DNA of 64,000 bases from an uncultured Muribaculaceae bacterium (GTDB lineage: Bacteria; Bacteroidota; Bacteroidia; Bacteroidales; Muribaculaceae): contig CAMWJS010000003.1 of assembly GCA_947174635.1 (NCBI GenBank), positions 37,597 to 101,596 of the forward strand, written 5' to 3'. Below, piece after piece: positions 44,904 through 64,000 of the stretch. The position numbers were made by a program, and so were the translations under genes. Within the stretch, counting starts at the first letter, position 1. Each line of letters starts with the position of its first letter. The notes under the pieces were generated by a model. The model was not told the origin of the DNA, did no database searches, and saw only the letters and a list, made by a program, of their open reading frames with translations.

Positions 44904-44927
44904 GAGATAATAACTGAAAATCAACGC

Positions 44928-44969
44928 CATAGGCGGTATGTCCTGATAATAAAGGATATACCGCCTATG
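44928..44969 (+). terminator. ppdK terminator hairpin (last recognisable host feature before the mobile element)
   Basis: cataggcggtatgtcc (44928-44943) pairs with ggatataccgcctatg (44954-44969) with one mismatch. Confidence 0.65.
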
Positions 44970-45118
44970 TTAGTCTTAAAGGAATTGTGCATTTGTACAC
45001 GATAGTTTGCACTAATGAACAGTAAAAATTCAACAAAATCTGCACGTTTCTCAACAGGCCAATTCAACATGAATTAAACAATAAACAAACATGATAAATA
45101 ACTAATACAATACAAGAT

Positions 45119-47353: not shown

Positions 47354-47484
47354 GGTTTCGGAAGAAATGCCCTTTTCTTCCGAAGTTTTCCGAATTTATA
47401 GCAATAACTTCCGAAATAATTGGAATAACTTCGGAAGAAATAGCAATAACTTCGGAAGTTATTCTAATAAATGGGGAAGGAATT
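47354..47484. repeat. Iteron array 1: six TTC(S)GAA palindromic cores phased 21-10-21-21-21 bp
   Basis: Cores start at 47357 (TTCGGAA), 47378, 47388, 47409 (TTCCGAA), 47430 and 47451 (TTCGGAA). The array ends with ataaatggggaaggaatt. It is homologous position-by-position to array 2, which lies 223 bp downstream. Confidence 0.9.
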
Positions 47485-47576: not shown

Positions 47577-47707
47577 AATTTCGGAAGAAATAGGGATTAT
47601 TTCGGAAGTTTTCGGAATTTATTCGCATAATTTCGGAAAGAATAGCAATAACTTCGGAAAGAATCGGCATAACTTCGGAAGTTATTGCTATAAATGGGGA
47701 AGGAATT
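47577..47707. repeat. Iteron array 2: six TTCGGAA cores with identical 21-10-21-21-21 bp phasing
   Basis: Cores start at 47580, 47601, 47611, 47632, 47653 and 47674. The 21-bp unit consensus is TTCSGAARNAATNGCAATAAC. The array ends with the same ataaatggggaaggaatt tail. Confidence 0.9.
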
Positions 47708-47775: not shown

Positions 47776-48177
47776 TTATTTGTCGTTTTCGGCGGCGAGC
47801 TGCGCAAGGCGCTGCTCTATTGTGGTGGTGATGTCGCCCGACAACGACACCTCGGCTGACACGGACTGCATCTGTGGTGTGTGGTAGCGCAGCAGTTTTT
47901 CGTGGATGGTTGCGCGGTCTTTGGCTTCCATCATCATCATATCAACTTCGAAATCGGAAACGACAAGCGGATTGCCGTCGGCGTCTTGCAGCATGACGGT
48001 GTTGTATAGTTCGCCCTCTTTGGTCCTAAGCTCTAATGTGCGTGGTGTGCCGTCCCCATTCGTCTGTGGCCGTGGTGCAAAGTAGGCCATGGAATGGGCG
48101 CGTAAATGCTCTTTGAGGGGACTGGGTTTGTTGGGAGTGCCTTTTTGTCGGCCTCCGGTTTTTCTTCCTTGTGCCAT
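47776..48177 (-). CDS. Hypothetical small basic-N-terminus protein (candidate DNA-binding/regulatory protein of the element)
   Basis: 133 aa. The N-terminal motif MAQGRKTGGRQKGTPNK is a basic GRxKGxxNK-type motif common in phage and mobile-element DNA-binding proteins. A TAccTTTG -7 box lies 27 nt upstream on the minus strand. Confidence 0.6.
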   Translation of the reverse strand: MAQGRKTGGRQKGTPNKPSPLKEHLRAHSMAYFAPRPQTNGDGTPRTLELRTKEGELYNTVMLQDADGNPLVVSDFEVDMMMMEAKDRATIHEKLLRYHTPQMQSVSAEVSLSGDITTTIEQRLAQLAAENDK

Positions 48178-48258: not shown

Positions 48259-48801
48259 ATGATCGGCAGCATAATCGGCGGAGCGATGCAGGTGGGCGGC
48301 GCAATCTTTGGCGGCATATCGGCGAGCAAAGCCATGAAGAAAGTGAAAAAGAACATACAGGAGCAGCAGCGCAAAAACCAGGACTGGTACGACCGCCGCT
48401 ACAACGAGGATGCGACCCAGCGTGCGGATGCCCAACGCATATTGGCAAAGACCGAGGAATCAATCCGCAACCGCAACCGTCAGGCGGCGGGAGCTCAGGC
48501 TGTCATGGGCGGCACGGAGGAGAGTGTTGCGGCGGCTAAGGCAGCCAACAATCAAGCTCTTGCGGATGCCACATCTCAGATTGCAGTCGCCGGAGAACGG
48601 CGCAAGGATGCCATCGAGCAACAATATCTGTCGACTGACCAGCAGCTTCAGGCGCAATTGAACAACCTTGAAGTCAATAAGGCAAGCGCCATATCCCAGG
48701 CCGTGCAGGGCGTGGCGAAAGCCGGAGCCGGCATGGCGCAGCCGATTGATGGCGCTTATTATGCATATCCGGACGGCAAGAAAGGAGGGGGCAATGCCTA
48801 A
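48259..48801 (+). CDS. Hypothetical protein with N-terminal glycine-zipper membrane segment and Q/A-rich coiled coil
   Basis: 180 aa: MIGSIIGGAMQVGGAIFGGISASKAMKK, then NQDWYDRRYNEDATQRADAQ and Ala/Gln-rich helices. It is the first gene of the plus-strand operon. Confidence 0.65.
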   Translation: MIGSIIGGAMQVGGAIFGGISASKAMKKVKKNIQEQQRKNQDWYDRRYNEDATQRADAQRILAKTEESIRNRNRQAAGAQAVMGGTEESVAAAKAANNQALADATSQIAVAGERRKDAIEQQYLSTDQQLQAQLNNLEVNKASAISQAVQGVAKAGAGMAQPIDGAYYAYPDGKKGGGNA

Positions 48802-49867
48802 CAACAATCAGCAGTCAATAGTAGAGCGGCCTCAGGCGGAGAGGATGCAGGCTCCGGTTACAGAGTCCGAGGCTCATATTGTGCCGTCTCCGACAAATAC
48901 CGGGCAGCATGCGCAGAGAGACGAACCTACCGGAGTAGAAAATGTGTCGGTCGACAATCAGCCGCAGGTGAGAAACCCGGAAAATTGGCAGGAGGCGGTC
49001 GACGAACATTTTTCAGACTGGAAAGAGACTCCTCGGGCTGGAAGCATGCAGGATGTCGTGGATTATCTGGAAGGGCGTATGAGCGCAATACACATCCCGA
49101 CAAAGGAGGAACTTGAAAAGGAGCGCCGCCGCAAGCGTGCCGAGGGTTTAATCTCGGCTATTGCGGACGGGGCGAGCGCTATTTCCAATCTCGCGTTCAC
49201 CACTCAATATGCCCCCAATATGTACAAGCATGAAAACTCAATGACCGCAAAGTGGCAGGAGCGCTACGACAAGTTGAAGAAGGAGCGCGAGGCAGATGCC
49301 GACCGATATTACAACTATGCGCTGACAGTAGGCAAAATCAAGGAGGCTCAGGAAGCCAAAGAGTATCAGCGTGGCCGCGATGCGCTTAAGGACAGCATAA
49401 CCGCCGCAAAGGCCGAACACGATGCAAGACTTGCGGATATCAGGTATAAAGTAGTGGCTCAGAAATTGAGCGCGGCCGAAGCGGCCGAAGCCGAACGCGC
49501 TGCGACACGGGAGCTTGACAGAAAAATCAAGGAGGCGAAACTGGAGGAAATACAATCGCGGACAAACAAGAATAATCGTTGGCAACCCTCGGGTGGCAAA
49601 ACGGGGCAGTTCACTGTGTCGCGCATTAATCCACAAACGGGCGAGAAAGAATACAAGAGTGACTTCAGGTCAGAACCATCGGCAAAGAACTTCGCTGCGA
49701 CGCATTCGGATGATGGATGGGTATATGAAACCATACCCACGACAAGCACAACCACGAAGCCTAATAAATGGGGTAGGACACAGACAACCACAACCGTAAG
49801 GGATACATCGACACCCCGCAATGAAAATAACTCAGAAAAGAAGAAAAAACCCAATCCAATGGATTAA
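48794..49867 (+). CDS. Hypothetical coiled-coil protein
   Basis: 357 aa from the ATG at 48794, which overlaps the upstream stop (aATGccTAA). The track ORF starts at 48668 inside the upstream gene. The protein has a charged helical core (KEELEKERRRKRAEG.., EAAEAERAATRELDRKIKEAKLEEIQ) and a Thr-rich, basic C-terminus. Confidence 0.6.
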   Translation: MPNNNQQSIVERPQAERMQAPVTESEAHIVPSPTNTGQHAQRDEPTGVENVSVDNQPQVRNPENWQEAVDEHFSDWKETPRAGSMQDVVDYLEGRMSAIHIPTKEELEKERRRKRAEGLISAIADGASAISNLAFTTQYAPNMYKHENSMTAKWQERYDKLKKEREADADRYYNYALTVGKIKEAQEAKEYQRGRDALKDSITAAKAEHDARLADIRYKVVAQKLSAAEAAEAERAATRELDRKIKEAKLEEIQSRTNKNNRWQPSGGKTGQFTVSRINPQTGEKEYKSDFRSEPSAKNFAATHSDDGWVYETIPTTSTTTKPNKWGRTQTTTTVRDTSTPRNENNSEKKKKPNPMD

Positions 49868-49870: not shown

Positions 49871-52800
49871 ATGACAAACGACAACAAGCAAAAACTATAT
49901 AACGCCCTTTCTCGGGATTATGAGTTGGGGACATTCGAGAAATTCTGTACGGATATCGATGACAGTGTAAAGCGACGTAAATTATTTGATGCTGCTTCAC
50001 AGGACTACGAACTGGGCTCTTGGGAAAGCTTTTCCAAGCAGTTAGGTTATACCGATTCAACACAGGAGGCTCCTCTAATTTCATCAATAGTCAGAAAAGT
50101 GGAGGAACAGGCAAAGCAGCATGTCAGTGTTACGTCGGCCGCTTCGGGGAATGCCGGCGCCAACGTATCGGCCGAGGCTTCCGAGCAAGCCGCGCCTGCA
50201 GAGGCCGCGCCGGTTGATCGGGGGCAACAGTCCTGGATGCCGTCCGTGCAGGATAGGGTCCGTGCATCATATCAGATGCAGACAGTTGCGGACGGGTTGA
50301 GCCACCGTGCGGATGAAGGCGCAGCAAAAGTGGGGCGTATCAATGAACCGTTGACCGCCGAGGGCAGGGAGCACAGGAAGCAGAAAGAGATGGAAGCGCG
50401 GATGGCCGGAGCGCCAACAACGTTGCTGGGTCTGACGGGACCGTCTAAAGCGAAAGCGGATGAAGAAAAGAGCTCTGCGCCGACCGAGAAAGCGGAGTTG
50501 CGTCCTGATGTCATGTCGCCTGTGCCGTATGGCGTGGAGTATGTCGACGGCAAGGCTGTTACCAAATGGCTGATGCCCGACGGCAGCGTGACAACGAATA
50601 TGGCTGAGGCCGACGCAGTTGAATATACCGCAAGGCAGCAACGACTTCATGACACCTATCTGAAGAATACAAAAGATATAAGCATAGACATCCCGAAGGA
50701 GAAGTCTATACGTGTAGGCGTATCTGAGTCTTACGGCAAACCTGTTATAATTTGGCGGTTGCCGGATGGTAGTCTTAAAAAAAGCTATGCAACGCCCGAT
50801 GATGAGAAATTCATTAAGGAAAATCAGGAAAAGTTTGATGAATTTGGCGGAAATTTAATCTCTTATAAATTTAATCAGGAGGCAGCAGATATCGTACAAC
50901 CCAAAGCGAAAGAAGCAGCGGAACAAGCGTGGAAAGCAGCAGAAGCAGCTTACGGAGAGAAGATGGAGTACAATCGAAGGAATTCGAACATCTGGTTGAG
51001 TTCAGCGGGAAATAGTACGGATGCCGCCTCAATTAAGCAGCTGGAGACTATTGATAATTTCACTGACAGGCTTACCACTCATGATCTGGATGCTCTGATG
51101 GATGCGGCATGGTCCAACCTCGGTGAGGCAGGGCAAAAATCTCTCATCGATGATTGCTATAAGATATTGCAACGTCAAAATCCTGAAACAGACAAGATTG
51201 CTTTATACAATCTTGCTAAAGATTATGCCCGTCAACAGTCTGATAAATCGCTATATAATCTTGCCGTAGAGAAAAACATGCCGAAAAATGGTCTTGACTA
51301 TTTTATGCGTAAAATTAGTGACATGAATTTTGTTACCAATTTAGGCAAGGGAATTGCTGTCAATCGTGTGAAGAAAACCGGCGACATGGCAGCTTACGAA
51401 GCAGCCAACGAACAATACCGACAGGACGGTCACAAGATACTTGACGTGACCGGCATGGTTGCAGGTTTCGCTTTCGACCCTACGACATGGTTGTCGGCAG
51501 GTGTCGGCGGTGCTGCGACGCGCGGCACAATGTGGCTCGGCGGTCGTTGGATGGCAGGACGCGGCGCAAGTACAGCCGTTAAACAAGCCGCCACGCGTCA
51601 ATTTGCAAACACAATGACAGGTCGCCTTGTCGGTGGTGTTGTCGGAGGCTCTGTCAACTTCGGCACCTTTGAAGGTACCAAGGAATTGGAGAACCAATTT
51701 GCACATGGCGGCCATATAGTCGGGCAGGATGAAACAGGTCGATATATCAACGAAGGCTATTCTGCATCAGCTGTAGGAGGTCAGGTGCTTCACGGTCTCG
51801 GCATGGGTGCAGCCATCGGTTGGCTCGGTCCCGTTACAGGCAACGTATCCGACAAACTTGTCAGAGCGACAACAAGCACATTGGGCAAGGTCGCCACTCG
51901 CGCGGGTATCTATACGGGTGCCACAATTGCTGAGGGTACAATTTTCTCTATCCCCGAATGGATAGAGGGTGGGCGTGACGGCTTCGATGTGTGGACTGAC
52001 AACATGGCCATGATGGCCGGTTTCAAAGCTAAGCACATGGTAAAGAGTGCCGGTGGTATCCTGAGAGACCTCAAAGCATCTTTTGAAAGCCCCTCCAACG
52101 GAAGCAAGAACCGCTTGAACTTTGAGAGCTGCCTGCGGCAGCGCATGGATGCGCCATCTGACGGAGGTCTTGCACTGACAAAGGATGAGCAGGCCGAGCT
52201 GCAGCGTTATGGCTATGACCTGCGCGACCTTGTGGAGAGTGCAGAGCGCACCGGCAACGCCAAAGAGGGCGGTATTATCGCACAGAACGCGCCCGAAATC
52301 GTCAGCCGACTTACTGATATGGTAACCGATCCGCGTGTCAGCGAAGCGGCAAGAGCTAAGATGTATTACTACGCTACAGGCCGTAAGCTCCCGATGTCAA
52401 CCGTGATGCGTGGCGAACTGTTTGAGGACGGCAACGGAGGCTTCGTTGTAGAATCGCTGGGTGCCAACGGTGTCATCACCTCACGCTCATTTACGAATCG
52501 CAAAGCCGCCGACCTCGAATTGGAGCGCATCAGACGACAGTCAGAACTCAATCAACTTGAACTTGGTGAGCGGTATCAGCCCATTGCAGACTTTGAGAGC
52601 CGCATGATGGAGGCGAGCCGCAGAGTGGCCGCAAATCATGGTTGGAATCCTGTTGATGTATATAAGACCTGTGAAGATGTCCTTGATTCATATGTGCGTG
52701 GCAACAATAAAGAGTTGTCGGACGTGCAAAAGAATATATACAACAAGATACTTGCCGAGTTGGATAAAATCGAGGTATCAGATTTAGCGACCGAGAAGCG

Positions 52801-55800
52801 CACAAGAATCAACGCCAAATATGATGTTGATATTGACAAAGCAATACGGAAAGAGCCTAATAGACGCACTGAGGCAGAGCAGAAAGCAATTGATGAGTAT
52901 ATTGCCGAGCTGATGCCCCGTCGAAATTCGGGGAACGGAATGTTTGACGAAGCGGGACAGCGACTATTGCCCGCAGAAGGAGAGCCACGGGATGTAGAGG
53001 ATGTCAATTACAGAGAGGCGGATGAAACCGGACAGACAATAGAGCATCGTTTTAAGGATGATTATGATTTTGTAGGAGTAGAACCCCACAAGTCCGCAGA
53101 GCAGCCATTAGGCCGTGCGGTGATGAAATACCAAGACCGTCAGGTCGAGGTGTTGGACGGTCGTGTGGTGATGACAGGTGACGGTACTATGATTGACTGC
53201 GAGCGCAGCGAGAAAACCATCGTCGTTCGCGATATTGCCACCGGCAAGGTCGAGATGGTTTCGCCTGAGGCGATACTGTCGTATGAGGGGTATGCAGACG
53301 AAGGAGAATTGCTGGACGCTCCGATTTCTCCAGAAAGTCCTTCCGTGGGAGAGTCAGTAGGGGCAGAGTCAACAGGGGCAATCTCCGCTGCGCCCAATTA
53401 TGATCTATACGATACATTCAGCGTGAATATAGAGGGGCGCGACCGTCCGTTGCCGGCTGCAGTAGTGGAACGCGACGGCAATACCATCACTATATGGACA
53501 CCTGAGGCAGTCAATCAGGCGAGTGCCAAAAGTCGCACAATGCGCGGTTATCTTACAGACTTGACATCTGCAGACCTTGATGCAATTTTACAGCGTGACG
53601 CAGAGGGTAACCCCGTGGGGTATGTTTCCGCCAATCCTCCGCAAGAGACAGAGGCCCGGACGGACCTTTCCCATACTCCTGTTGACGGGCAGGGACAGCC
53701 TAAGCATGAAGAAGCCGGTTCTGATGCAGCACCGGATGTCATTGCAGGACAGGCGCAGGTGGACGAGGCGACGGCGACCGCCGACACAGCCGAATATGAC
53801 CGGGGCTATGAGCAGGGATTGGAAGACGCTGCAAAGGCTGATGACGCATGGATTGCGAACCTTATCAAGATATACAGCCAAAACACGCCCGAATCAATGC
53901 CCGAGATCATGAAAGGTCGGTTGGATGCATTCCTCTATGAGCAACAGCGCAGGGCAATGGAAGCGCAGAGCGTTCCCAATCCCGCCGCTCCAGTAGAAAA
54001 CGGACAGCAAACGGCCGATGATGGCTTCATCTCCATTGACCCTGCAATCAAGCCTGATGAGAATGGGAATATAAATATACCTGCCCCCGAAGCACAGGCG
54101 GAGCCGACCCCCCTGCAGCGTATCCCGCGTGATGAGCAGGGGGAGCCGATATTGACGCATGAGAGTGTCGATGCGGATACCGCGTGGGGCGGTGCTGTCG
54201 AATTCTTCGGTAGCGAAGACGACGCACGTTCGTATGTTGACGCTCAGGTAAAAAGTTCAGAGGCGGCCATAACAGCAGCGGAAAAGGCGGTCGGAAAAGT
54301 AAAGCCGACGGCCGGAATGACAAAATATCGCGAAGATCTAAAGAATGCGCGCGTAGCTGTAGATGCCGCCAAGTCGACTCTTGCCAGATGGAAGGAGATT
54401 GCAGAGGTGCATGACCGGCAGAAAGCGGAGGTCGAGGAAGCCAAGGCTGCGGAGAATGCATTCAAGGCGTCGATAACCCAAGGAAAGGCCGAGCTTGAGC
54501 ATGCATACGAGGAGGTGAAAGATGTGCCTGAGGCTGTCGAGATACTCCGGAATATGGAGCCGCAGAGCATAGACGAGGTTGCGGCGATGCTGCTTACCGG
54601 AAGCAAGGTGCTATGGAATGACGAGGGTGTGAAGCGTGGAATGAAGAGCATGCTGGGATATGGCGAGGGTGAACGGAAAGGATTGTTCGGTCTGTTCGCT
54701 GCGTCGAAAAACGGAGGTGAGACGCTGGAGCGCCTTGCTGAGGATAAGATGAAAGAGTTATGTGAAGCATACGGCATCGAGTACGACAACTACGATGCGT
54801 TGACGGCATTGACCGATGTGCTTGGAGCCTGCAGGACACGGGGCGACTTGCATAAGTACATACAGAACCGTCGTATCGCACAGGCGCTGCAGATGAAAGA
54901 TGACTTTGTACGTCATGTGGAAAAAGAGGCGGAAAGGATGTCGCAGGAGGCATACCATATGTCGGTTGCCGACCGGGAGGCATACGAGAGTCAGTTGCCG
55001 GACGAGATGAAGAAAATAGATATGAAAGATGCGGATATAGTGGAAATGAATGCTATATTTGCAGATGAAATCATAGAAAGGCAGAGATATGAAGAAAATA
55101 TCAGAAATGAGCAAGGACGAGCTGATAGCGTATTACCGGCAGGCTCAGACGTATTGCATGGAGAACAGGCTGATTACGGCGGAGGAATTCCGGAAACTTC
55201 GGCAGGAGAAAGGCGAATTGGGGGCGATGGCGGCGTTGATAGGCAGAATGGAGCTGCACCGGAAAGCACACCCGACAGAGAGCAAGGGAATGTAATAGAG
55301 GAAGCATATCAGAGAAATGTAACGAGATATGACCGGACTGTGCCTGCTACCCCTGAGGCACAGCGCTCGGCTATTTCCCGCATCATAGACTTTGCTAAAA
55401 ACGTAAGGAATCGCGTTGAGCGTGCCGTTATTGGCGGTATAACCAAGCGGCAGGCCAAAGATTTTGCGGATAATGGCATAGATGTGGATGAAACGTGGGT
55501 GCACTCATTCGAGTCCTCGGCGGTTGTTCATAATCAAGGTCGGCATGGAGACTCTCGTACCGAAGAACGCGCAGGCCAGATTGCCATTACTTCCGAAGAT
55601 TATGCGCGTATACCCGAAATACTTGAAGCCTATGACCGAGTGACAAAATCGCCGAACCGCTCACGCAGTACTGGTAATGAGGTCATTATTTATGAAAAGG
55701 ACTTTGATGATGGCTATATCTACTATTTGGAAGAGAAAAGGGATAAGCGTAAATCCTTATCATTCCAAACAATGTACAAAAAGAAAAAAGGAACTGATAG

Positions 55801-58800
55801 TTCCGACGGGTTGATGCCTGTTGCCTCTCCCTCTACGCCCACAGCGCCTCCGGACAATCTCAGTTCCAGTTCTGAGGGCAAAGGTATAAACTTTGCGTCA
55901 GATAAACAAACGGACGGCGTAGGAAGTTATGTACAACCTGCTGACAACAAGGGTGCGCAGACCATTCAGACCGCTGTTGAGGCTGCATCTTCCGAGGTAA
56001 ACACCGAACCTACCGAGGCACAGAAAGCCGCAGGCAACTACAAGATGAAACACCGCCGTGTTGACGGCTACAACATCAGTATCGAGAATGCCAAAGGCAG
56101 TGTGCGCCGTGGTACCGGAGCAGACGGAAAGCCGTGGGAAACCACGATGCAGAATGACTACGGCTATATACGAGGAACCGAGGGTGTGGACGGCGACCAC
56201 ATTGATGTTTTCCTGTCGGACACCCCCGAAAAGGGAGATGTGTTTGTCGTCGACCAGGTTAACGAGGACGGCTCTTTTGACGAGCATAAGGTAATGTATG
56301 GCTTTCCCTCGGAGGAGGCCGCACGCGCAGCGTATCTTTCCAACTATGAACCAGGATGGACGGGACTCGGCGAAATAACTCATGTCAGCAAGGATGAGTT
56401 TAAAAAATGGATTAATTCGAGTAGACGCAAGACTAAGCCCTTTGCTGACTACAAAAGCGTTCGTGACATCACTAATAATGTAAAGCAGGCTATTCAGGAG
56501 ATATTAGTCTCAGACAATTACAGAGCAGTCGTAGTTACCGACTCGTCGGGAAAAGAGACCTATAGAGTTCTATTAAACAAAGGGGCTCGTAAAAAAGAGT
56601 GGCAGATAAAGTCGGAGTTACATAACGGCCACTATAGTTCTGATGGTTATGGAACTCTCATATTCTCAAGTCGAAATGACATGGAGGCATGTCTTGACGA
56701 TAGGGATGCAGACATTGATATCCTGAATAAACGTTTGCTCAGAAAGGATGATGAAAATCGCCGTAAGAAGAGAACAGAGTGGAAGGCCTCAATGCTTGAG
56801 AAAATAAAAGGAATGTCGACTGAAGACCTTCGACATAACATTGAACTTTACGACAAAGCACCAGACCGCCGACATGATGAGGAAAAGGAGGTAATCGATG
56901 CCGCTCGCCAAGAGTTGAGGCTTCGCGATGCCGCGGTGAAAGATGCGACGGATGATTCAGCCGAAATCACGCGACTGAGTAAGAAATACCGGTCAGCACC
57001 TATAAAGGTTGTCAAATCAATTGAGGATATTAAATCAGATGATCTCTCGGAAGATACATTGGAAGAGATTGCCGGAGCTATGGAAGAGGCAGAAACTCAG
57101 GCAATCTACTGCAAAGAGAATAAAAAAATATATATCTTTGCGGGTAAGTATCAGGATGGCGAGCTCGATTACATTGTAGCTCATGAAAGTGTGCACGCAG
57201 CAGTGGACAAACTTGGGCTAAGAAATGGAGAAGAGCTAAATTATTACCGTAAATCTATTGCAGGTATTTTCGACAATGAAGCTCCAGCGGAATTAAACAA
57301 GATCATCTCAGAGAAATATGCACCAGAAGATGAGGATGAGGAGTTTTTGGCTTATACTCTCCCATGGATTAGCCGAAACAAAAAGCGTATGCGTAAGGTA
57401 CTTGAACACGGTGAGGGCAGACTGGTAGATTTTATAAATCAATTAAACGAAGAGATATATGGAAAAGAAGAGATACAATCAATGCTCTCCGCCACTGAGG
57501 AGAGAACTCCTACTAATGTTCATGGGGGACGAGGAGGACAGGTTCGAGGACGAAGAGGAACAGCCGGAACCATCACAGGAGACGACTCAGGAGGAGACGC
57601 CGACACCGGAAACCGACAGATAGAAGATTTCGGGGAGAAGATAGCGGGGGCGCGCAAAGATGCACTTAGTGCATTTGCCAAGACGATAGAGAATGTGTCG
57701 GTGCAGTCATTGATAGAGCTTCCGATGTCAAAGGCCTTTACCCGTCCTAATCTTCGAAAGATGGTGGAGACGGGCGCTATCAGCGACGAAGATGCCATTC
57801 TTGCTGAGGCTATACTTCAGGGGCAGATTTATGCGCATCGGAAGCCTGCGCTCACCAAGCGGCAGAGCAGCAAAAAAGCCGTAGAGGAATGGGCGAGAGC
57901 CACCTATGGCGGCATATCAATGCTCGGCGAGATATTGAGCGGAGACCCTTCACGTCGTGAGGCGGCTATCTTGCAGTATAATGAAAGGCTTGCGGCAGAG
58001 CTCGAAGCTGCCAATGCCCATGTGGCCAAGATGCGCGAGTGGAATCCAGGCAAAAAAATTGAGGATGTCAAAGCGATACCCAATCCCATCGATATAACGC
58101 GAAGGGTGCTTGAGGGTATCGGTTATCATGTGGGAGATGCAGTTAAACTGCCTCTGACAAATATCGAGCTAAGTTCTAACAAACAATACTACATAGTCGG
58201 AAGTGCCGGCAAGCAGGGCGCATTATGGTTCAAGATGCACCATGACACACTTGATGGGGCGGTAGACACAATGATAATGGCGGCCAAGCTTGCACGTGGA
58301 GACCGCGATGTGGAGCTGCCGTTGCGACAGTTTGTGACAAAAGGCGTAGGGACCCCGCATAAAGAGCTGACCGGCAAATATGAGGTGTTGTATTTTGCCA
58401 AAGATGGCAAGACTGTCAAGAGCCGAGTGTTTGACGGTAAGGACAAAGCCGAGGTATTTGCCGCTGACAGCAAGGGATTGATGAGGGAGTTGGTGAAATA
58501 CACCAATGACTTTGACGCATACGCTATTGAAGCAATCAATCCATTGACAGGAGAACGGCATACGTTGCGCGACGATTTCGGCAGCCGAGCCGAAGCATCG
58601 ACGTGGATAGATGAGTCGTATGAGGAAGCCAATAATCTTGCTCTTGATGCGCTGTACAAAGAGATGAATGTCGAATCGACGCCACGCAGTCATTACTATG
58701 TGGAGTCCGTGTTCCGTCACGGCAAGATGGTTGGAAGGGTAGTCGAGGACGACAAGAAAAATCCGTGGCGCCTCACCAAGTATTTTGAGAGTCGCAAAGA

Positions 58801-61800
58801 GGCCGATGAATGGCTTGCTGCCAATGCAGAACGACTGGAGACAGAGCGCAAGGCTCATCTTGATCAGAAGCGCAAAGTAGTATATTTTAAAAACACCGAC
58901 GGAGAACGTCAAGGTGTAGACTACCGAGGCGGAGAGGATGCGACGCCGGAGATGTTTGGCGAGACATTCGGGTTCAGGGGAGTGCAGTTTGGCAACTGGA
59001 CTAACAATGCAGACCGTCAGGCGGCATTAAACCAGGCGTATGATGCGCTGATGGATTTATCAAATGAATTGGGTATCACACCGCGAGCGGTGTCGCTTGA
59101 CGGAGAGCTTGGGCTGGCGTTTGGAGCTCGAGGGACTGGGGGAGCGACAGCGCATTATGAACCGGTGGAGGTTGTAATTAACCTAACCAAAACAAAGGGA
59201 GCCGGAGCGTTGGCGCATGAATGGTGGCATGCTGTTGATAACTTTTTGTCGCGCAAGGCCGGTGTGGCCATGGGATATGCTACAGCACGAAACGGATTGG
59301 AAGGCATGCGTCCTGAAATAAGGGAAGCAGTGGCTGAACTGATGGACGCTTTAGATAATTCCGCCTATGCCCGTCGCAGCCGTGACAAAGGAGATTATTG
59401 GGGGCGACCTACCGAGCTTGGTGCGCGACTGTTTGCAGCATGGCTTGCGGAGCGGATGAAAGAACGGGGTGTTGAAAGCCCGTTCCTCACTACAGGACTG
59501 AGCGAAGCGGCATGTGACATGTATCAGCGCTTCAACTATATTATGTATGAGATGCGCGAACGTGATAAGGCAGAGATAGAAAATCGGGAGCCTGGCATTA
59601 TGTCGCGTGAAGAATTCAACAAGTTGCCGGAGTCACTGCATGGATATCCATATCCTACAGCTCAGGAGATAGAAGATTTCGGCGGTCATCTTAGCACTTT
59701 GTTTGGCGCCATGTCAGAGAGGGAGAAGGAGAGCGGCAGCATTGCGAATGAGCGAGGCGGCAGATACAAGAAGCTGCGGTCGACAACTGCCGGCATGAGT
59801 CTTTTTGACTGGGCGGATGCCGAGGAAATCCGACACCGACATAGTAAGTCGGCTGATGAGAAGGCATTGACGGCAGAGGTAGCCAATAATGCGCTCGACG
59901 AATATGCCGAGGCTTACAATAATTATCTCGACCGATGGGAAGATCTTGAAAGGCGCAAAGCGGAGGTCGATAAGGACAGCATGGAGGCACAGGGATTGCA
60001 GGAAGCCATAGAGCAGGAAGAGAGAATGGCAATCGAGGCGCGCGAGCGGCTTATTGAAGCGTTGAGCGATTATTATTTGCGGGACAATACACCCGAAGAT
60101 ACCCGACGAATAGCCCGCGACATGGCGGCACGAGTACAGGCTGAGGTCGAGATACGTCGTGACCGCAACCATATATTAAGTGATATATTAACCGGAGGAG
60201 GTGGAGTTGAACCGATTGACGGAAAGCCGGAGCAGGCAGAAGCAAAGCAGGTAAAGACAGCAGGGGGCAATATCAGTTATAATGCTCTTGGACATTTGCC
60301 TGATGCCAAAGCAGGAGAGTTTGCGTATGTAGAGCGACAGTTCAGCCGCACGGGAGACTTTTTGTTTACCGGTAACGGAGTCATCAAAGATCGAGGCGAT
60401 GTGGCGTATCTGTTCAAGGCGCTGGAGGATTATTCGATTGAGCATGTGTTTGCAGCATTCGTCAAGGATGGCAAAGTCAAGGTGTTGCATATAGGGATGG
60501 GCGGACCGACATCGAGTTTTGCCGATCTCGGAGCGATAAGAGCAGGTTATGATGCCTTTGGTGCGGATGCAGTTTATCTGGTGCATAACCATCCGTCGGG
60601 AAACCTGTCGGCCAGTGTGCCTGACATGAGGCTGATGAAAACGCTTGAGGCTGCGTTTGGTGACGAAGTGGCAGTAGGCGGTATCATCATAGACACAACG
60701 TCGGGGCGCTACACTACTTTTGGTGGCACAGGTGAGACCGGTCGATATGATATGAAGCAGAACGGAGGTGAAGATGCGGTTGACGTCATGCGGTTTGATG
60801 GCGTTGACCGAAGCGCCGGCAGAAGCGAAAGCGTTATAATAGCCAACTCGGCCGATATTGCCCGATACGTATCAGAGCGTCGACTTGGGGCAGGTGACAA
60901 GATAAGTTACCTTGTATTATCAAACAGGAATGAGATTGTAGGCAATTTCCATACTGACTATGATAAACTTGATGCTTCGGGGCTTGCGGAGGAGATAGCG
61001 AGTGTTACCACCAAGTACGGAGGTACGCGTGCTGTGGTTTATGGTAATGTCAAAATCAATAAGGCTCGTGAACTGAGTGCGGAGGTATCGAGACTGAGTC
61101 TTGGTGCCATCAAGATGCTTGACGCTATAGAGGTGACGAATGGCATCAACCGCAGCGCCAATGATGACGGCCTGTTGTATGAGCCGGGCAGCGAGTTCTC
61201 AGATACGCAGAATGGAGAGAAGCGCTACCGCGAACTTGAAAATGACGCCCGCCAGCAGGAAATGGCGCAGACCTCGCCGGAGGCCAAAGGTGCCCACGTA
61301 GAAAAGCTGGCGAATAAATTCAATACTCCTATTCGGATTGTCAATGACATCAACGAGCTGAGGAGCGAGAATGCCGAGCAGCAGGAGCGCATGCGACGCA
61401 GCAAAGCTTTCTATGTATCGGAGACCGGAGAGATTACGGTCGTACTACCCAACAACACAACTGTGGAGGATGTAGCAGAATCCGTGCTTCATGAGGTCGT
61501 GGCGCACAAGGGACTGCGGGAAATGATTGGAGAGGAAAACTACGATGCTTTCTGCGATGAAGTTTATAAACACCTCAAGGGTATTTTAAAGCGGCAGATC
61601 GATAAGGAAACTGCACGTAGCTTCATGCGAGAGCCGGAGAAAGGCTACGAATATCATCGCCGTGTAGCTGTAGATGAATTGTTCGGACGCTTGAGTGAAA
61701 AGGGGTTTGAGGATTTCACCGAGCCTGAGCGTGGCATCTGGAAGAAACTCAAAGCAAAAGTGCTGGAGGCAATCAACAAGTTCCTCGGTTCGCTGAAACT

Positions 61801-64000
61801 GCCCAAGTGGGTGAAACTCGGTGATAACGAACTTCGCTATATACTGTGGCGCAGCCACGAGCGATTGCGCAACAAGGATTATGTCGATATGGCCCGCGAT
61901 ATAGCCAAACGCGAGGAGTTGGGGTTGAGAAGCAATGAGGCGGTCAGAGAGCGGAAGAGTGCAGAGGAGGTGACGGCAGACAGAATAGTGAAGACGTTTG
62001 ATGAGGCAATCTCGGGAGACTTAAAAGGTAAGCCTGTAGAAGTGGGCCGGTTGACAAAAGAAGGAAAAGAGTATCTTGAAAAACTGTCGGGAATAAGGAT
62101 GAAAGAGGATGTTTCGTTCGTTCTCAATCCGTCAGACCTGGTTCATATATACCGTCGCCACTACGGTGATAATGAAAAGGATGTGCGCAATATACCATTG
62201 ACCAAAGAAGATATCAGACAGATGTCTGAAATTGTGTCAACACCCGACCGCATTGTATATGGAAAAGAAGCAGATGGTAATCAGCGTAATATGTTCTTCT
62301 TTCTAAAAGAAGCCGTAGACGGAAGCTACAATCTCATGGAGGTCTATTCCGACAGAAAAGGGAATCTGACAGCAAAAAGCTTCTTTAAAAGCAAAGAGGG
62401 CGTATCCCAACGTGTAATGCTACTCAATGAGTCCTCTACACTTACGTCCGTAACGGATGGGGCAACCCTCTCAGATGCAGCAAAGTTACCAAAATTCTTT
62501 GAGAATCCAACAATTGCAGAGGAAGAAAGTTTTGAATATCGTTTCCGCGATGGTGAGACCGGCGACATCTGGAAGGATCAGAGCGTGGGATTGGAAGAGC
62601 GTATTACCAATGCCGCCATACGACTGAGCAACAATCATAGCGGCGACCTGAGCCTGCGCAATGACGCTCAGAAGGCCGTTATTGACAATCTGCAAAGCCT
62701 GTTGCATGAAATGCGTAACCGCCGGGGCACCGCCCGAAGTTTTGTCGGTGCCGACCGCAAGGTAGAAAGTGGCGTTGTCGACGCGATGAACGCGCAGGCG
62801 ATGTTTGACCGCGCCACCGTCAAGCGAGTTTCCAACCTCGCGCGTATCCTCCTGCAGAACGGCTACCTCTCGGATATGACTTCCGGAGAAATGCAGAGGT
62901 TGTTGTCGGCGGTCAAGAACTCTACCGCCATGCACGATATAGCCGACAGTGTGCAGAAGATTATGGACATCATGGTCAATAATCAACTCCGCAATGCCGA
63001 GGGCGCACTGCGTCAACTCCTGTCAATACGTGGCAGCAAGGTTGATGCGAGAGGTGTAGAGGTGCAGGGAGTGCTTGACGTAGAGGGTCAGCGCACAATG
63101 GAGGTGGTGAAGGACGCAATCTCACTCACCGAGGATGACATCACCGACCGCATTGATGAGGCGCTGAACAGAATGAGTGATCCCAACCAAACCATAGCCG
63201 ACAATGCTGCCATTGAGTATGTCGGCCTCAACATGGCACTCGACTACGTTCAGAACATTGCGAACAGTAAAACAGAGGAGAAAACACTTCGTGATGGGCT
63301 CAAGCGAGCCAAAGAAGACAGGGATGCAGGACGCATGACCGATGATGCCTACAAGCAGTTTGTTGAAACCGCCGAGGATGCAATCCGCAAGAATAAGATT
63401 GAACGTGCTGAGGCATATTTCAATCTTGTCGGCAGGTTGTCTGATTCATTACGCGGCAGCATTGAGAATGCCAAGGCTTTCCGCGAGGCGGAGAAAGCCC
63501 GCGTGAATGAGATTCACCACAATGCCAACTCCGACATGGAGGGTAGACCTGCAAACGAGCACCATAAGGATGATTGGAAAGACAAGTTTGCCAACAATGG
63601 TTTCGTTCAGTTCTTTTTTGCGCCCCTCGGTACCTTCGACCAGATACTCCGCGTGTTCGGCAACAAGAGTGCCAATGGCGAGGGTTATCTGTGGAACCGC
63701 TTCATGCGCGGTTGGGTAGATTGCCGCAACAAGGAGTTGCTCGGTGTGAAAGAGAAATACGCGCGTCTGGACGAAAAGGCCGCAGAGCTGTTTGGCAAGG
63801 GCAAGACTTGGGGCAACCTCATCAGAATGGAGGCGAAGATGCCGAAGGCTACCGTTTCATTCTGGGACGGGGATGAAATGCGCGACCATGAACTGACACA
63901 GGGTAACCTGCTCTACATCTACATGGTAGACAAAATGACGGACGGACGCATGAAACTGCGACGCATGGGTATCACAGAGAACGATATTGCCAAAATTGAA
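49871..64000 (+). CDS. Giant polyvalent-type multidomain protein, 5' 4,710 codons (3' end beyond window)
   Basis: ATG at 49871 is preceded by an in-frame TAA (49865-49867) and GTG (49868). I translated this frame manually from 49871 to 64000 and met no stop codon; frame phase was spot-checked by coordinate arithmetic at about ten positions (49913, 55082, 55529, 56189, 57182, 59216, 60584, 61490, 62144 and the final codon ending at 64000). It is absent from the supplied ORF track, apparently because it has no in-window stop. Only short antisense or off-frame ORFs are listed across this 14.1 kb. Confidence 0.9.
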   Translation, partial: MTNDNKQKLYNALSRDYELGTFEKFCTDIDDSVKRRKLFDAASQDYELGSWESFSKQLGYTDSTQEAPLISSIVRKVEEQAKQHVSVTSAASGNAGANVSAEASEQAAPAEAAPVDRGQQSWMPSVQDRVRASYQMQTVADGLSHRADEGAAKVGRINEPLTAEGREHRKQKEMEARMAGAPTTLLGLTGPSKAKADEEKSSAPTEKAELRPDVMSPVPYGVEYVDGKAVTKWLMPDGSVTTNMAEADAVEYTARQQRLHDTYLKNTKDISIDIPKEKSIRVGVSESYGKPVIIWRLPDGSLKKSYATPDDEKFIKENQEKFDEFGGNLISYKFNQEAADIVQPKAKEAAEQAWKAAEAAYGEKMEYNRRNSNIWLSSAGNSTDAASIKQLETIDNFTDRLTTHDLDALMDAAWSNLGEAGQKSLIDDCYKILQRQNPETDKIALYNLAKDYARQQSDKSLYNLAVEKNMPKNGLDYFMRKISDMNFVTNLGKGIAVNRVKKTGDMAAYEAANEQYRQDGHKILDVTGMVAGFAFDPTTWLSAGVGGAATRGTMWLGGRWMAGRGASTAVKQAATRQFANTMTGRLVGGVVGGSVNFGTFEGTKELENQFAHGGHIVGQDETGRYINEGYSASAVGGQVLHGLGMGAAIGWLGPVTGNVSDKLVRATTSTLGKVATRAGIYTGATIAEGTIFSIPEWIEGGRDGFDVWTDNMAMMAGFKAKHMVKSAGGILRDLKASFESPSNGSKNRLNFESCLRQRMDAPSDGGLALTKDEQAELQRYGYDLRDLVESAERTGNAKEGGIIAQNAPEIVSRLTDMVTDPRVSEAARAKMYYYATGRKLPMSTVMRGELFEDGNGGFVVESLGANGVITSRSFTNRKAADLELERIRRQSELNQLELGERYQPIADFESRMMEASRRVAANHGWNPVDVYKTCEDVLDSYVRGNNKELSDVQKNIYNKILAELDKIEVSDLATEKRTRINAKYDVDIDKAIRKEPNRRTEAEQKAIDEYIAELMPRRNSGNGMFDEAGQRLLPAEGEPRDVEDVNYREADETGQTIEHRFKDDYDFVGVEPHKSAEQPLGRAVMKYQDRQVEVLDGRVVMTGDGTMIDCERSEKTIVVRDIATGKVEMVSPEAILSYEGYADEGELLDAPISPESPSVGESVGAESTGAISAAPNYDLYDTFSVNIEGRDRPLPAAVVERDGNTITIWTPEAVNQASAKSRTMRGYLTDLTSADLDAILQRDAEGNPVGYVSANPPQETEARTDLSHTPVDGQGQPKHEEAGSDAAPDVIAGQAQVDEATATADTAEYDRGYEQGLEDAAKADDAWIANLIKIYSQNTPESMPEIMKGRLDAFLYEQQRRAMEAQSVPNPAAPVENGQQTADDGFISIDPAIKPDENGNINIPAPEAQAEPTPLQRIPRDEQGEPILTHESVDADTAWGGAVEFFGSEDDARSYVDAQVKSSEAAITAAEKAVGKVKPTAGMTKYREDLKNARVAVDAAKSTLARWKEIAEVHDRQKAEVEEAKAAENAFKASITQGKAELEHAYEEVKDVPEAVEILRNMEPQSIDEVAAMLLTGSKVLWNDEGVKRGMKSMLGYGEGERKGLFGLFAASKNGGETLERLAEDKMKELCEAYGIEYDNYDALTALTDVLGACRTRGDLHKYIQNRRIAQALQMKDDFVRHVEKEAERMSQEAYHMSVADREAYESQLPDEMKKIDMKDADIVEMNAIFADEIIERQRYEENIRNEQGRADSVLPAGSDVLHGEQADYGGGIPETSAGERRIGGDGGVDRQNGAAPESTPDREQGNVIEEAYQRNVTRYDRTVPATPEAQRSAISRIIDFAKNVRNRVERAVIGGITKRQAKDFADNGIDVDETWVHSFESSAVVHNQGRHGDSRTEERAGQIAITSEDYARIPEILEAYDRVTKSPNRSRSTGNEVIIYEKDFDDGYIYYLEEKRDKRKSLSFQTMYKKKKGTDSSDGLMPVASPSTPTAPPDNLSSSSEGKGINFASDKQTDGVGSYVQPADNKGAQTIQTAVEAASSEVNTEPTEAQKAAGNYKMKHRRVDGYNISIENAKGSVRRGTGADGKPWETTMQNDYGYIRGTEGVDGDHIDVFLSDTPEKGDVFVVDQVNEDGSFDEHKVMYGFPSEEAARAAYLSNYEPGWTGLGEITHVSKDEFKKWINSSRRKTKPFADYKSVRDITNNVKQAIQEILVSDNYRAVVVTDSSGKETYRVLLNKGARKKEWQIKSELHNGHYSSDGYGTLIFSSRNDMEACLDDRDADIDILNKRLLRKDDENRRKKRTEWKASMLEKIKGMSTEDLRHNIELYDKAPDRRHDEEKEVIDAARQELRLRDAAVKDATDDSAEITRLSKKYRSAPIKVVKSIEDIKSDDLSEDTLEEIAGAMEEAETQAIYCKENKKIYIFAGKYQDGELDYIVAHESVHAAVDKLGLRNGEELNYYRKSIAGIFDNEAPAELNKIISEKYAPEDEDEEFLAYTLPWISRNKKRMRKVLEHGEGRLVDFINQLNEEIYGKEEIQSMLSATEERTPTNVHGGRGGQVRGRRGTAGTITGDDSGGDADTGNRQIEDFGEKIAGARKDALSAFAKTIENVSVQSLIELPMSKAFTRPNLRKMVETGAISDEDAILAEAILQGQIYAHRKPALTKRQSSKKAVEEWARATYGGISMLGEILSGDPSRREAAILQYNERLAAELEAANAHVAKMREWNPGKKIEDVKAIPNPIDITRRVLEGIGYHVGDAVKLPLTNIELSSNKQYYIVGSAGKQGALWFKMHHDTLDGAVDTMIMAAKLARGDRDVELPLRQFVTKGVGTPHKELTGKYEVLYFAKDGKTVKSRVFDGKDKAEVFAADSKGLMRELVKYTNDFDAYAIEAINPLTGERHTLRDDFGSRAEASTWIDESYEEANNLALDALYKEMNVESTPRSHYYVESVFRHGKMVGRVVEDDKKNPWRLTKYFESRKEADEWLAANAERLETERKAHLDQKRKVVYFKNTDGERQGVDYRGGEDATPEMFGETFGFRGVQFGNWTNNADRQAALNQAYDALMDLSNELGITPRAVSLDGELGLAFGARGTGGATAHYEPVEVVINLTKTKGAGALAHEWWHAVDNFLSRKAGVAMGYATARNGLEGMRPEIREAVAELMDALDNSAYARRSRDKGDYWGRPTELGARLFAAWLAERMKERGVESPFLTTGLSEAACDMYQRFNYIMYEMRERDKAEIENREPGIMSREEFNKLPESLHGYPYPTAQEIEDFGGHLSTLFGAMSEREKESGSIANERGGRYKKLRSTTAGMSLFDWADAEEIRHRHSKSADEKALTAEVANNALDEYAEAYNNYLDRWEDLERRKAEVDKDSMEAQGLQEAIEQEERMAIEARERLIEALSDYYLRDNTPEDTRRIARDMAARVQAEVEIRRDRNHILSDILTGGGGVEPIDGKPEQAEAKQVKTAGGNISYNALGHLPDAKAGEFAYVERQFSRTGDFLFTGNGVIKDRGDVAYLFKALEDYSIEHVFAAFVKDGKVKVLHIGMGGPTSSFADLGAIRAGYDAFGADAVYLVHNHPSGNLSASVPDMRLMKTLEAAFGDEVAVGGIIIDTTSGRYTTFGGTGETGRYDMKQNGGEDAVDVMRFDGVDRSAGRSESVIIANSADIARYVSERRLGAGDKISYLVLSNRNEIVGNFHTDYDKLDASGLAEEIASVTTKYGGTRAVVYGNVKINKARELSAEVSRLSLGAIKMLDAIEVTNGINRSANDDGLLYEPGSEFSDTQNGEKRYRELENDARQQEMAQTSPEAKGAHVEKLANKFNTPIRIVNDINELRSENAEQQERMRRSKAFYVSETGEITVVLPNNTTVEDVAESVLHEVVAHKGLREMIGEENYDAFCDEVYKHLKGILKRQIDKETARSFMREPEKGYEYHRRVAVDELFGRLSEKGFEDFTEPERGIWKKLKAKVLEAINKFLGSLKLPKWVKLGDNELRYILWRSHERLRNKDYVDMARDIAKREELGLRSNEAVRERKSAEEVTADRIVKTFDEAISGDLKGKPVEVGRLTKEGKEYLEKLSGIRMKEDVSFVLNPSDLVHIYRRHYGDNEKDVRNIPLTKEDIRQMSEIVSTPDRIVYGKEADGNQRNMFFFLKEAVDGSYNLMEVYSDRKGNLTAKSFFKSKEGVSQRVMLLNESSTLTSVTDGATLSDAAKLPKFFENPTIAEEESFEYRFRDGETGDIWKDQSVGLEERITNAAIRLSNNHSGDLSLRNDAQKAVIDNLQSLLHEMRNRRGTARSFVGADRKVESGVVDAMNAQAMFDRATVKRVSNLARILLQNGYLSDMTSGEMQRLLSAVKNSTAMHDIADSVQKIMDIMVNNQLRNAEGALRQLLSIRGSKVDARGVEVQGVLDVEGQRTMEVVKDAISLTEDDITDRIDEALNRMSDPNQTIADNAAIEYVGLNMALDYVQNIANSKTEEKTLRDGLKRAKEDRDAGRMTDDAYKQFVETAEDAIRKNKIERAEAYFNLVGRLSDSLRGSIENAKAFREAEKARVNEIHHNANSDMEGRPANEHHKDDWKDKFANNGFVQFFFAPLGTFDQILRVFGNKSANGEGYLWNRFMRGWVDCRNKELLGVKEKYARLDEKAAELFGKGKTWGNLIRMEAKMPKATVSFWDGDEMRDHELTQGNLLYIYMVDKMTDGRMKLRRMGITENDIAKIE
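51440..52040 (+). other. Gly/Ala-rich hydrophobic (glycine-zipper / TM-like) block inside the giant ORF
   Basis: Translated: VTGMVAGFAFDPTTWLSAGVGGAATRGTMWLGGRW..GRLVGGVVGGSVNFGTF..AVGGQVLHGLGMGAAIGWLGPVTG..AGIYTGATIAEGTIFSIPEWI..NMAMMAGF. Confidence 0.6.
55355..55790 (+). other. Barnase/EndoU/ColicinE5-D/RelE-like (PBECR-type) nuclease-like module 1
   Basis: Translated: ..TWVHSFESSAVVHNQGRHGDSRTEERAGQIAITSEDYARIPEILEAYDRVTKSP..GNEVIIYEKDFDDGYIYYLEE. The H..(G)RHG motif (55529-55549) followed by 'ITxEDyxxIPEIL..xD.V' is the pattern I associate with PBECR domains of polyvalent proteins. Confidence 0.5.
56030..56420 (+). other. Inorganic-pyrophosphatase-like module
   Basis: Translated: GNYKMKHRRVDGYNISIENAKGSVRRG...NDYGYIRGTEGVDGDHIDVFL (DGDHIDV = 56189-56209)...VNEDGSFDEHKVM. 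This parallels the family-I PPase core NYGYI..T...DGDPvDVLV ... DExGExDxK. Confidence 0.5.
57100..57420 (+). other. HEXXH (zincin-like) motif region 1
   Basis: Translated: YIFAGKYQDGELDYIVAHESVHAAVDKLG, with HESVH at 57182-57196. Downstream acidic residues (PEDEDEEFLAY) are possible third ligands. Confidence 0.4.
58950..59500 (+). other. HEXXH (zincin-like) motif region 2
   Basis: Translated: FGFRGVQFGNWTNNADRQAALNQAYDALMDLSNELGI...ATAHYEPVEVVINLTKTKGAGALAHEWWHAVDNF, with HEWWH at 59216-59230. Confidence 0.5.
60350..60700 (+). other. RadC-like JAB/JAMM domain
   Basis: Translated: ..AVYLVHNHPSGNLSASVPDMRLMKTLEAAFGDEVAVGGIIID. HNHPSG-x5-S-x-PD (60584-60625) is the canonical RadC/JAMM metal-binding signature. 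Confidence 0.75.
61400..61860 (+). other. HExxxH-containing conserved module (possible divergent metallopeptidase)
   Basis: Translated: VEDVAESVLHEVVAHKGLREMIGEENYDAF.. (LHEVVAHKGLREMIG = 61487-61531). The spacing is HExxxH, not the canonical HEXXH. Confidence 0.35.
62050..62410 (+). other. Barnase/EndoU/ColicinE5-D/RelE-like (PBECR-type) nuclease-like module 2
   Basis: Translated: VLNPSDLVHIYRRHYGDNEKDVRNIPLTKEDIRQMSEIVSTPDRIVYGKEADGNQRNMFFFLKE (HIYRRHYG = 62144-62167). It has the same H..RHG + LTxEDI..xxEIV..PD.I pattern as module 1. Confidence 0.5.

Follow-up and report, generated by a model that had tools for sequence, protein, structure and literature searches.

The Giant Open Reading Frame and Its Full Extent

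The window analysed here is the whole of a 64,000 nucleotide (nt) stretch from an uncultured Muribaculaceae bacterium (assembly GCA_947174635.1, contig CAMWJS010000003.1, positions 37,597 to 101,596 of the forward strand). Its right part carries a prophage and, within it, a giant open reading frame (ORF) that starts at ATG 49871 of the forward strand and runs off the window end at position 64000. An initial annotation, made from the sequence letters, had described a gene of at least 4,710 open codons that dominates the visible element and comes after an integrase and small genes. Both points are borne out. Machine translation of window positions 49871–64000 found 0 stops across 4,710 codons, while the six-frame stop map of the same interval counted 223 and 357 stops in the other forward frames and 92, 142 and 188 in the reverse ones. 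The stop density of these five frames (~2–7.6% of codons) predicts ~90–360 stops in the giant frame, so that a chance origin is excluded (P far below 1e-40); the same had been argued before for about 50% GC, and the GC content of the interval is 50.6%. The closest in-frame stop 5′ of the ORF is found at 49865 and ATG 49871 is thus the first possible start. The alignments of relatives to the giant protein begin at its residues 1–3. The ORF was called “unlisted” in the initial annotation. It is indeed missing from the supplied ORF list, but the cause is an edge rule of the ORF tool, which omits frames running off the source end, and not biology.

The full gene was taken from contig JAIDVS010000006.1 (116,418 bp) of assembly GCA_029059545.1. 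Positions 1–24130 of the locus extracted from it (L164) are sequence-identical to window positions 39871–64000. Extension of the contig to find the stop and a check for mis-assembly or frameshifts had been advised in the initial annotation. The frame closes with a TAA at window-equivalent position 66310, after which phage head genes follow, and it comprises 5,479 codons (gene coordinates 49871..64000 in the window, on to 66310). The complete protein has 5,479 residues, a mass of 612 kDa and an isoelectric point of 5.2. Residues 1–4710, or 86% of the protein, are encoded inside the window; residues 1–4,710 of the library protein P0310 (5,479 amino acids (aa)) are identical to the window translation. 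Among loci from IMG/VR viral contigs, 75 of 79 and 58 of 63 keep the giant frame open as far as the locus edge, and an uninterrupted giant gene is also found in the genome of the cultured temperate Bacteroides phage BS-TP4. The recurrence of this open frame in independent assemblies and in the cultured phage makes an artefact of assembly or frameshifting unlikely. An exact-match search of IMG/VR and JGI metagenomes with the final 60 nt of the window gave no match. The giant ORF is a real coding gene.

Domain Architecture of the Giant Protein

The translation has the composition of an ordinary protein and the catalytic motifs seen in it at first reading are real: the signatures of InPase, RadC and PBECR3 are intact. 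One chain combines several unrelated effector domains, namely two PBECR3 copies, an InPase, a RadC-JAB domain and two HExxH regions. All coordinates given below are on the forward strand of the window.

The protein begins with a tandem ~30-aa motif (LYxxL..GY/ELG..F, two copies; aa 1–62; 49871..50056; phrog_24532, E=3e-10), which is found at the start of every full-length family member and is a candidate capsid-targeting signal. It is followed by a conserved N-terminal core (aa 349–1520; 50915..54430) with 32–64% identity to relatives. The first PBECR3 predicted RNase (aa 1855–1976; 55433..55798; Pfam PF18812, E=3e-19) lies in a variable cassette. Next comes an inorganic pyrophosphatase of the polyvalent type, InPase (aa 2049–2182; 56015..56416), matched over the whole Pfam PF18823 profile (E=5e-58); this domain is conserved family-wide and its acidic motifs DGDHIDV and DEHKV are intact. 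A zincin-like HExxH region with HESVH at aa 2438 (57068..57430) was identified by motif scan. Its assignment as a peptidase comes from the motif only since no family model matched. The segment 57530..59710 codes a block of LPD5 (aa 2946–3032; E=1e-8, 35.8 bits), a second HExxH motif (HEWWH, aa 3116) and LPD1 (aa 3171–3280; E=2e-9, 38 bits), homologous to Stx-phage gp47/gp71. Both LPD scores are over the Pfam cut-off of 27, and the HEWWH region matches NCBIfam CLCA_X with E=1.5e-36, under its curated cut-off.

The RadC-like JAB domain (aa 3514–3595; 60410..60655; Pfam PF04002, E=2e-6) has an intact HNHPSG..S..D motif (aa 3572) and is conserved in relatives; its matches to NCBIfam RadC are weak. 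The adjacent conserved segment (aa 3787–4030; 61229..61960) carries an HEVVAH motif, is 71–74% identical to relatives and is LPD3-like in these, where homologs carry PF18798. The second PBECR3 predicted RNase (aa ~4069–4177; 62075..62401; Pfam PF18812, E=4e-12) is an insertion missing from the closest relatives (alignment gap at aa 4030–4220). The PBECR3 signature H..RHxGD is intact in both copies. A conserved helical C-terminal module (aa 4220–5479, ~1,260 aa; 48–92% identity to relatives) closes the protein, its first 491 aa being encoded in the window (62528..64000).

PHROGs ties single segments of the protein to DarB-like antirestriction, minor head and other large phage proteins. No match was found in the window protein to a MuF domain or a known capsid-targeting domain (Pfam, PHROGs), to the single-subunit RNA polymerase domain of an N4-like virion RNA polymerase (Pfam, PHROGs, NCBIfam, PDB), to a lysozyme or transglycosylase domain (Pfam) or to LPD38 (Pfam). 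The dyad of N6-adenine methyltransferase and helicase known from DarB is likewise absent from the window protein (Pfam); helicases or methyltransferases are seen in relatives only.

The Element Is a Temperate Podovirus-Like Prophage

The initial annotation left the element type unresolved, with no capsid, terminase, relaxase or type IV secretion genes in view. The genes on both sides of the giant ORF settle the type. A gene for a T7-gp14-like internal virion protein of 180 aa is present already in the window (48259..48801, forward strand). The match to Pfam PF24072 (T7_gp14; 34 bits, cut-off 27) spans its residues 4–172 and the amino-terminus is glycine-rich and hydrophobic. The protein is 62% identical to BS-TP4 gp1 and has a homolog in 60 of 63 N-terminal loci. 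A gene for a 357-aa protein comes next (48794..49867, forward strand; called on JAIDVS010000006.1), sharing its first 8 nt with the 3′ end of the gp14-like gene and stopping 3 nt ahead of the giant ORF. It is found in 61 of the 63 N-terminal loci. The encoded protein has partial 56% identity to BS-TP4 gp2 and no Pfam or PHROG match.

The contig continues past the window with a P22-type portal gene, which begins 104 nt after the giant stop codon and is followed by the large terminase (TerL) gene on the opposite strand, phrog_27246, phrog_22323 and a 510-aa gene; in two close relatives (L005 and L003) the counterpart of this 510-aa gene matches an SU10-type capsid model. Next come two more conserved genes of phage type and, last, one that codes for 1,027 aa or more. 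The TerL and the portal are 65% and 68% identical, respectively, to those of BS-TP4. The last gene resembles BS-TP4 gp14, on which the diversity-generating retroelement (DGR) of that phage acts, with 41% identity at its start, and the head module downstream of the giant gene is collinear with BS-TP4 gp4–gp14. Among 93 related loci, 84 have a portal homolog, whose start lies a median distance of 67 nt past the giant stop. Neither the window's element nor its 26.4 kb in L164 contains relaxase, coupling protein or type IV secretion system (T4SS) genes. Since portal, TerL and capsid-module genes follow on the same contig in an order collinear with BS-TP4, the element is a prophage and not an integrative and conjugative or mobilizable element (ICE/IME); we read it as the prophage of a temperate podovirus-like phage of Bacteroidales (Muribaculaceae). 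Membership of “Quimbyviridae”, suggested by the DGR and the Bacteroides host, was rejected: that group is myovirus-like, has genomes of ~75 kb and other TerL relatives.

At the left side, host genes for a TonB-dependent receptor, PnuC, a tRNA methyltransferase and PPDK extend up to 44903. The clusters to which this PPDK and the prophage integrase belong have named members that indicate a host of Muribaculaceae/Duncaniella type. The prophage starts with a tyrosine integrase gene (45119..46615, forward strand; 498 aa) positioned 215 nt past the PPDK stop. The integrase has Pfam Phage_int_SAM_5 and Arm-DNA-bind_5 domains, matches the phrog_1 integrase family (E=1e-22) and is 59% identical to the BS-TP4 gp61 integrase. 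The only tRNA gene of the window codes tRNA-Glu (6749–6822) and none is found near the integrase; the attachment site is thus not tRNA-associated and is expected within the AT-rich spacer 44904–45118. The right attachment site attR is not on the contig. Two small adjoining genes of 73 and 75 aa follow the integrase directly on the reverse strand (46612–46833 and 46854–47081). The pair overlaps the integrase 3′ end by 4 nt and has no family match; the two genes may code an excisionase or a regulator. Between them and the next reverse-strand gene, which encodes a 133-aa homolog of BS-TP4 gp62 (47776..48177; 30% identity, E=1e-14; called on JAIDVS010000006.1), Tandem Repeats Finder identified two intergenic arrays of 21-bp tandem repeats (47388–47484 and 47627–47680), each with 3–4 copies that are 74–87% matching. 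These repeats could be operator or iteron sites of the prophage regulatory region. At the other side the contig ends ~2.5 kb past L164, inside the gene of at least 1,027 aa (L164 35108–36440), so that only ~33.7 kb of the prophage are assembled. The assembly break may be due to the DGR template and variable repeats or to population variability.

Family, Spread and Cassette Swapping

Relatives of the giant protein are encoded in 18 genome loci and in more than 140 loci from IMG/VR viral contigs. After stitching of overlapping loci from 18 viral contigs of ~57–66 kb, complete relatives were found to have 6,260–7,270 aa; BS-TP4 gp3 has 5,391 aa and takes 25% of its genome, and the giant gene takes 30–33% of the record in three viral contigs of 61–65 kb. 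The C-terminal module, searched by phmmer with a single homologous fragment (P0005) as query against 1.84 billion cluster representatives, gave 1,250 matches at E<=0.001 and 557 at E<=1e-30. Among the best 150 matches, 106 have a length of 4,000 aa or more (up to 7,091) and nearly all have the module at or near their C-terminus. Searches with segments of the protein against a 5.8-billion-sequence database yielded nothing longer than fragments of ~1,400 aa. The portal family has 6,843 database matches at E<=1e-50, and BS-TP4 was detected in 31.3% of 930 Chinese metaviromic datasets (PMC12694917). Phages with such a gene are common in the gut and the gene is the norm of a widespread lineage of temperate Bacteroidales phages, with products of 5,391–7,270 aa. 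The size judged exceptional for a Bacteroidota mobile element in the initial annotation is, accordingly, ordinary within this lineage. The protein is no more singular than its size, given the 1,250 cluster representatives with its C-terminal module and a polyvalent class that was already described (PMC5512222).

BLASTP comparison with relatives divides the protein into a conserved scaffold (aa 349–1520, ~2000–2270, 3478–4030 and 4220–end) and variable cassettes (aa 1520–1980, 2270–3470 and 4030–4220). The relatives carry, in place of PBECR3 and LPD5/LPD1, DdrB-ParB, SNF2 or Strawberry-notch-type helicases and Kinase-PolyVal. Methyltransferase, LPD13, LPD23 and LPD38 cassettes are also found in them. 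A few related phages have two adjoining ORFs of 2,801 and 3,796 aa in place of one giant gene; split-gene loci are L127/L128 and L053/L071 (IMG/VR contigs 3300008096_000278 and 3300045988_072574). The split may be natural or come from a single stop codon. It suggests that the halves can work as separate polypeptides.

Two observations concern the limits of the family. Relatives of 44–50% identity (L007 and L011) lie on contigs binned as Eggerthellaceae (Actinomycetota) and Sphaerochaetaceae (Spirochaetota), which are either mis-binned phage contigs or reflect a host range past Bacteroidales. A Prevotellamassilia-type subgroup (L018 with L084–L093) has a different layout: the match to window aa 3911–4710 is found in a separate 903-aa ORF of L018 and no portal was found in its 9 loci with the queries used.

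The Conserved Terminal Modules

The N-terminal core and the C-terminal module have no counterpart among characterized domains. None of 45 homologs of the N-terminal core (0/45) contains a Pfam domain, and no PDB fold (Foldseek) or PDB sequence match was found. Its AlphaFold2 (AF2) model is nearly all helical (predicted local distance difference test (pLDDT) 63), with a poorly defined segment at aa ~520–720 that is glycine-rich and weakly hydrophobic. The C-terminal module, modelled on the 1,200-aa fragment P0005, is also helical (pLDDT 64) and lacks Pfam, PDB fold and PDB sequence matches. The best Foldseek E values of the two models against PDB are 0.38 and 0.14, nothing significant. Against BFVD the C-terminal module matches pieces of other very large phage proteins (E=3.5e-26 to 1e-8) that are annotated as ART-PolyVal, LPD-containing or MuF-C-containing; one, from the podovirus Tenacibaculum phage Gundel_1, is annotated as “Structural protein”. 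This last label was considered as experimental support, but the paper does not contain the term “mass spectrometry” and we retain the label as a lead only. The C-terminal 800 aa gave weak matches only against GenBank phages. A tentative view, which we hold with considerable reserve, is that the helical N-terminal core and the C-terminal module could form a new podovirus ejection machine serving as chassis for swappable anti-defence cassettes.

Comparison with Known Phage Proteins

Phage-type polyvalent proteins are multi-enzyme chains whose length exceeds 2,000 aa and can reach 12,242 aa; their genes neighbour virion genes, and injection of the proteins along with the DNA is predicted. InPase and PBECR are typical of them, while RadC was listed only in the conjugative-type ones (PMC5512222). 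The giant gene belongs to this class because it has the testable defining features: multiple effector domains, LPDs and a portal neighbourhood. It shares with the proteins of Iyer et al. (2017) the presence of unrelated enzymes and LPDs in one chain, the proximity to virion genes and the extensive domain shuffling between orthologs. It differs from them in the scale of the lineage (5,391–7,270 aa, 25–33% of a ~60-kb genome), in two conserved parts not covered by any Pfam or LPD model (the N-terminal core of ~1,200 aa and the C-terminal module of ~1,260 aa), in the lack of a MuF or portal fusion and in the presence of RadC-JAB despite its conjugative-only listing. The gene scale, the two unmodelled conserved modules, the regular cassette swapping and a RadC-JAB domain in a phage-type protein were not found in the literature searched, which contained no paper on Bacteroidales phages under the term “polyvalent protein”.

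The strongest link to experimental data leads to the Stx phages. Residues 2554–3207 and 3817–3976 are collinear with TL-2011c gp71 365–1112; the LPD5-HExxH-LPD1 core has 38.7% identity over 274 columns (E=2e-42) and aa 3787–4030 are weakly collinear with gp71 residues 964–1112. This Stx-homologous segment of ~650 aa matches 193 phage records, ~180 of them Stx-type. The phi24B gp47 protein (2,811 aa; LPD5, LPD1, LPD38 and a metallopeptidase) is abundant in the virion proteome and invisible in the cryo-electron microscopy (cryo-EM) reconstruction; a capsid-packaged ejection protein was proposed by the authors (bioRxiv 10.64898/2026.04.10.717836). The Stx phages (phi24B gp47; TL-2011c gp70 and gp71) are also temperate podoviruses of ~60 kb with a distantly related TerL (25% identity), and upstream of their large LPD protein they likewise encode a small glycine-rich protein and one of ~400 aa; however, the small genes upstream of the giant ORF have no similarity to Stx-phage gp68/gp69. 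The window protein is twice as long as the Stx-phage protein and adds the two PBECR3 domains, InPase, RadC and other terminal modules. LPD38 is absent from it, though found in BS-TP4 gp3.

BS-TP4 gp3 (PQ571277.1; PMC12694917) occupies the same slot in the gene order integrase, gp62, gp1, gp2, gp3 and portal. The InPase is shared at 58% identity and the similarity elsewhere is patchy (27–37%). The BS-TP4 protein carries DdrB-ParB, a Sno-type helicase and LPD38, lacks the C-terminal module of the window protein and comes from a phage whose host is Bacteroides salyersiae, not a Muribaculaceae. For the polyvalent protein P1 DarB (250 kDa), packaging into the phage head has been proven, and its targeting signal comprises 30 residues at the N-terminus (PMC9024508). 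This antirestriction protein of 2,255 aa is likewise a large multi-enzyme and is thought to enter the cell with the DNA. The PHROG “DarB-like antirestriction” family (phrog_10089) is the top match of the InPase tile, through InPase only. Unlike DarB, the window protein lacks a methyltransferase and a helicase. Further differences are that P1 is a myovirus and that Dar helper genes were not observed here. The PHROG “minor head protein” match, which recalls the MuF/SPP1 gp7 head-protein fusions, also runs through InPase only. The InPase has in addition a PDB sequence match to residues 633–763 of the portal of Pseudomonas phage Pa193 (E=1e-28), a protein whose C-terminal part 529–765, including the InPase homolog, has no cryo-EM density. 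As for the T7 proteins gp14, gp15 and gp16, the gp14-family gene is found two genes upstream of the giant gene in an operon-like stack of three, but neither the 357-aa nor the giant protein has similarity to gp15 or gp16 (Pfam, PHROG, PDB-sequence, Foldseek), there is no transglycosylase and the genes are positioned upstream of the portal instead of after the tail genes.

Proposed Role of the Giant Protein

The giant protein is probably a capsid-packaged, injected anti-defence multi-effector. We infer packaging and ejection because of the precedents of phi24B gp47, P1 DarB and the Pa193 portal InPase. The protein would be made late and loaded into the procapsid, possibly via the N-terminal tandem motif and the helical terminal modules, and would leave the particle through portal and tail, either together with the DNA or shortly before it. 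After entry into the new host it could be released as such, or its own HExxH peptidase domains could cleave it into effectors: two PBECR3 RNases, RadC-JAB for nucleic-acid processing and an InPase that would hydrolyse pyrophosphate or nucleotide signals. During the first minutes of infection these effectors might weaken the defences of the host and condition the cell. Related phages exchange such cassettes, which would be part of an arms race.

Several points weigh against this proposal. The giant protein and its close relatives are known from genes alone, and the BS-TP4 paper never uses “giant” or “polyvalent” nor discusses gp3 as such (PMC12694917). The homology to phi24B gp47 spans only ~15% of the giant protein. 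Its terminal modules have no detectable similarity to T7 gp15/gp16 or P22 gp7/gp16/gp20, their AF2 models are of moderate confidence (pLDDT 63–64) and no strong transmembrane segment is found (Kyte–Doolittle maximum 1.14). Peptidase activity is predicted from HExxH motifs only, HESVH being without a family match and CLCA_X sub-cut-off. The proposal would also require a 612-kDa chain to pass through a podovirus tail.

Other roles were weighed on the same data. The giant protein might never enter the virion and act as a cytoplasmic multi-enzyme hub for host takeover or protection, for instance in anti-defence, nucleotide-pool control or superinfection exclusion via the RNase domains. Its enzymatic domains would work equally well if made in the cell, no known capsid-targeting or MuF domain was detected and the family is known from genes, not from virions. 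However, the gene is embedded in the head module between the gp14-like gene and the portal in 84 of the 93 loci, the protein is homologous to one found in the phi24B virion proteome, the context of InPase and PBECR is virion-linked (PMC5512222) and an anti-defence protein made after DNA entry would come too late against restriction; we consider this role unlikely. A role still harder to sustain is that of a mainly structural ejectosome or internal core, equivalent to T7 gp15/gp16 or P22 gp7/gp16/gp20, which would form a trans-envelope conduit for DNA with the enzymatic domains as secondary passengers or cell-wall-degrading tools. Such a role was proposed for phi24B gp47 (bioRxiv 10.64898/2026.04.10.717836) and would fit the gp14-like gene upstream, the long helical terminal modules with their glycine-rich amphipathic stretch and the fact that no other ejection-protein candidates were seen in the module. 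Nevertheless the protein resembles neither T7 gp15/gp16 nor any solved ejection protein in sequence or fold, no lysozyme or transglycosylase domain was found and most of its recognisable domains target nucleic acids or nucleotides, not the cell envelope. The two ideas overlap, and a conduit function could coexist with that of an injected multi-effector.

Two further explanations have a negligible probability. Polyvalent proteins are known on conjugative elements and RadC is listed as conjugative-specific (PMC5512222), which would be expected for an ICE/IME protein delivered via a T4SS; yet the portal, terminase and capsid genes are on the same contig, the element is collinear with a cultured phage, InPase and PBECR are phage-type markers (PMC5512222) and none of the examined loci has a relaxase or T4SS gene. 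The idea of an assembly or annotation artefact, or of a decaying pseudogene kept open by luck, has as its only argument the absence of the ORF from the supplied list, against 0 stops compared to 92–357 in the other frames, a frame that is whole in most independent assemblies and in a cultured phage, and catalytic motifs that are kept.

Implications for Gut Bacteroidales Phages

The largest gene of this lineage, 25–33% of the genome, is annotated merely as “hypothetical protein”, and ORF lists without edge-truncated frames can conceal the dominant gene of an element. If packaged and injected, the giant protein would be among the largest known phage cargo proteins, and the family would provide a catalogue of anti-defence effectors (RNases, pyrophosphatase, kinases, helicases, methylases) against Bacteroidales immunity, with the swapped cassettes marking sites of an arms race. 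The terminal modules could serve as probes for further proteins of this kind and perhaps as a means of bringing foreign proteins into gut Bacteroidales. If they are indeed an ejection chassis, a common gut Bacteroidales phage lineage would spend a quarter to a third of its genome on one injected “Swiss-army” protein of 600–800 kDa whose cargo is reshuffled between phages.

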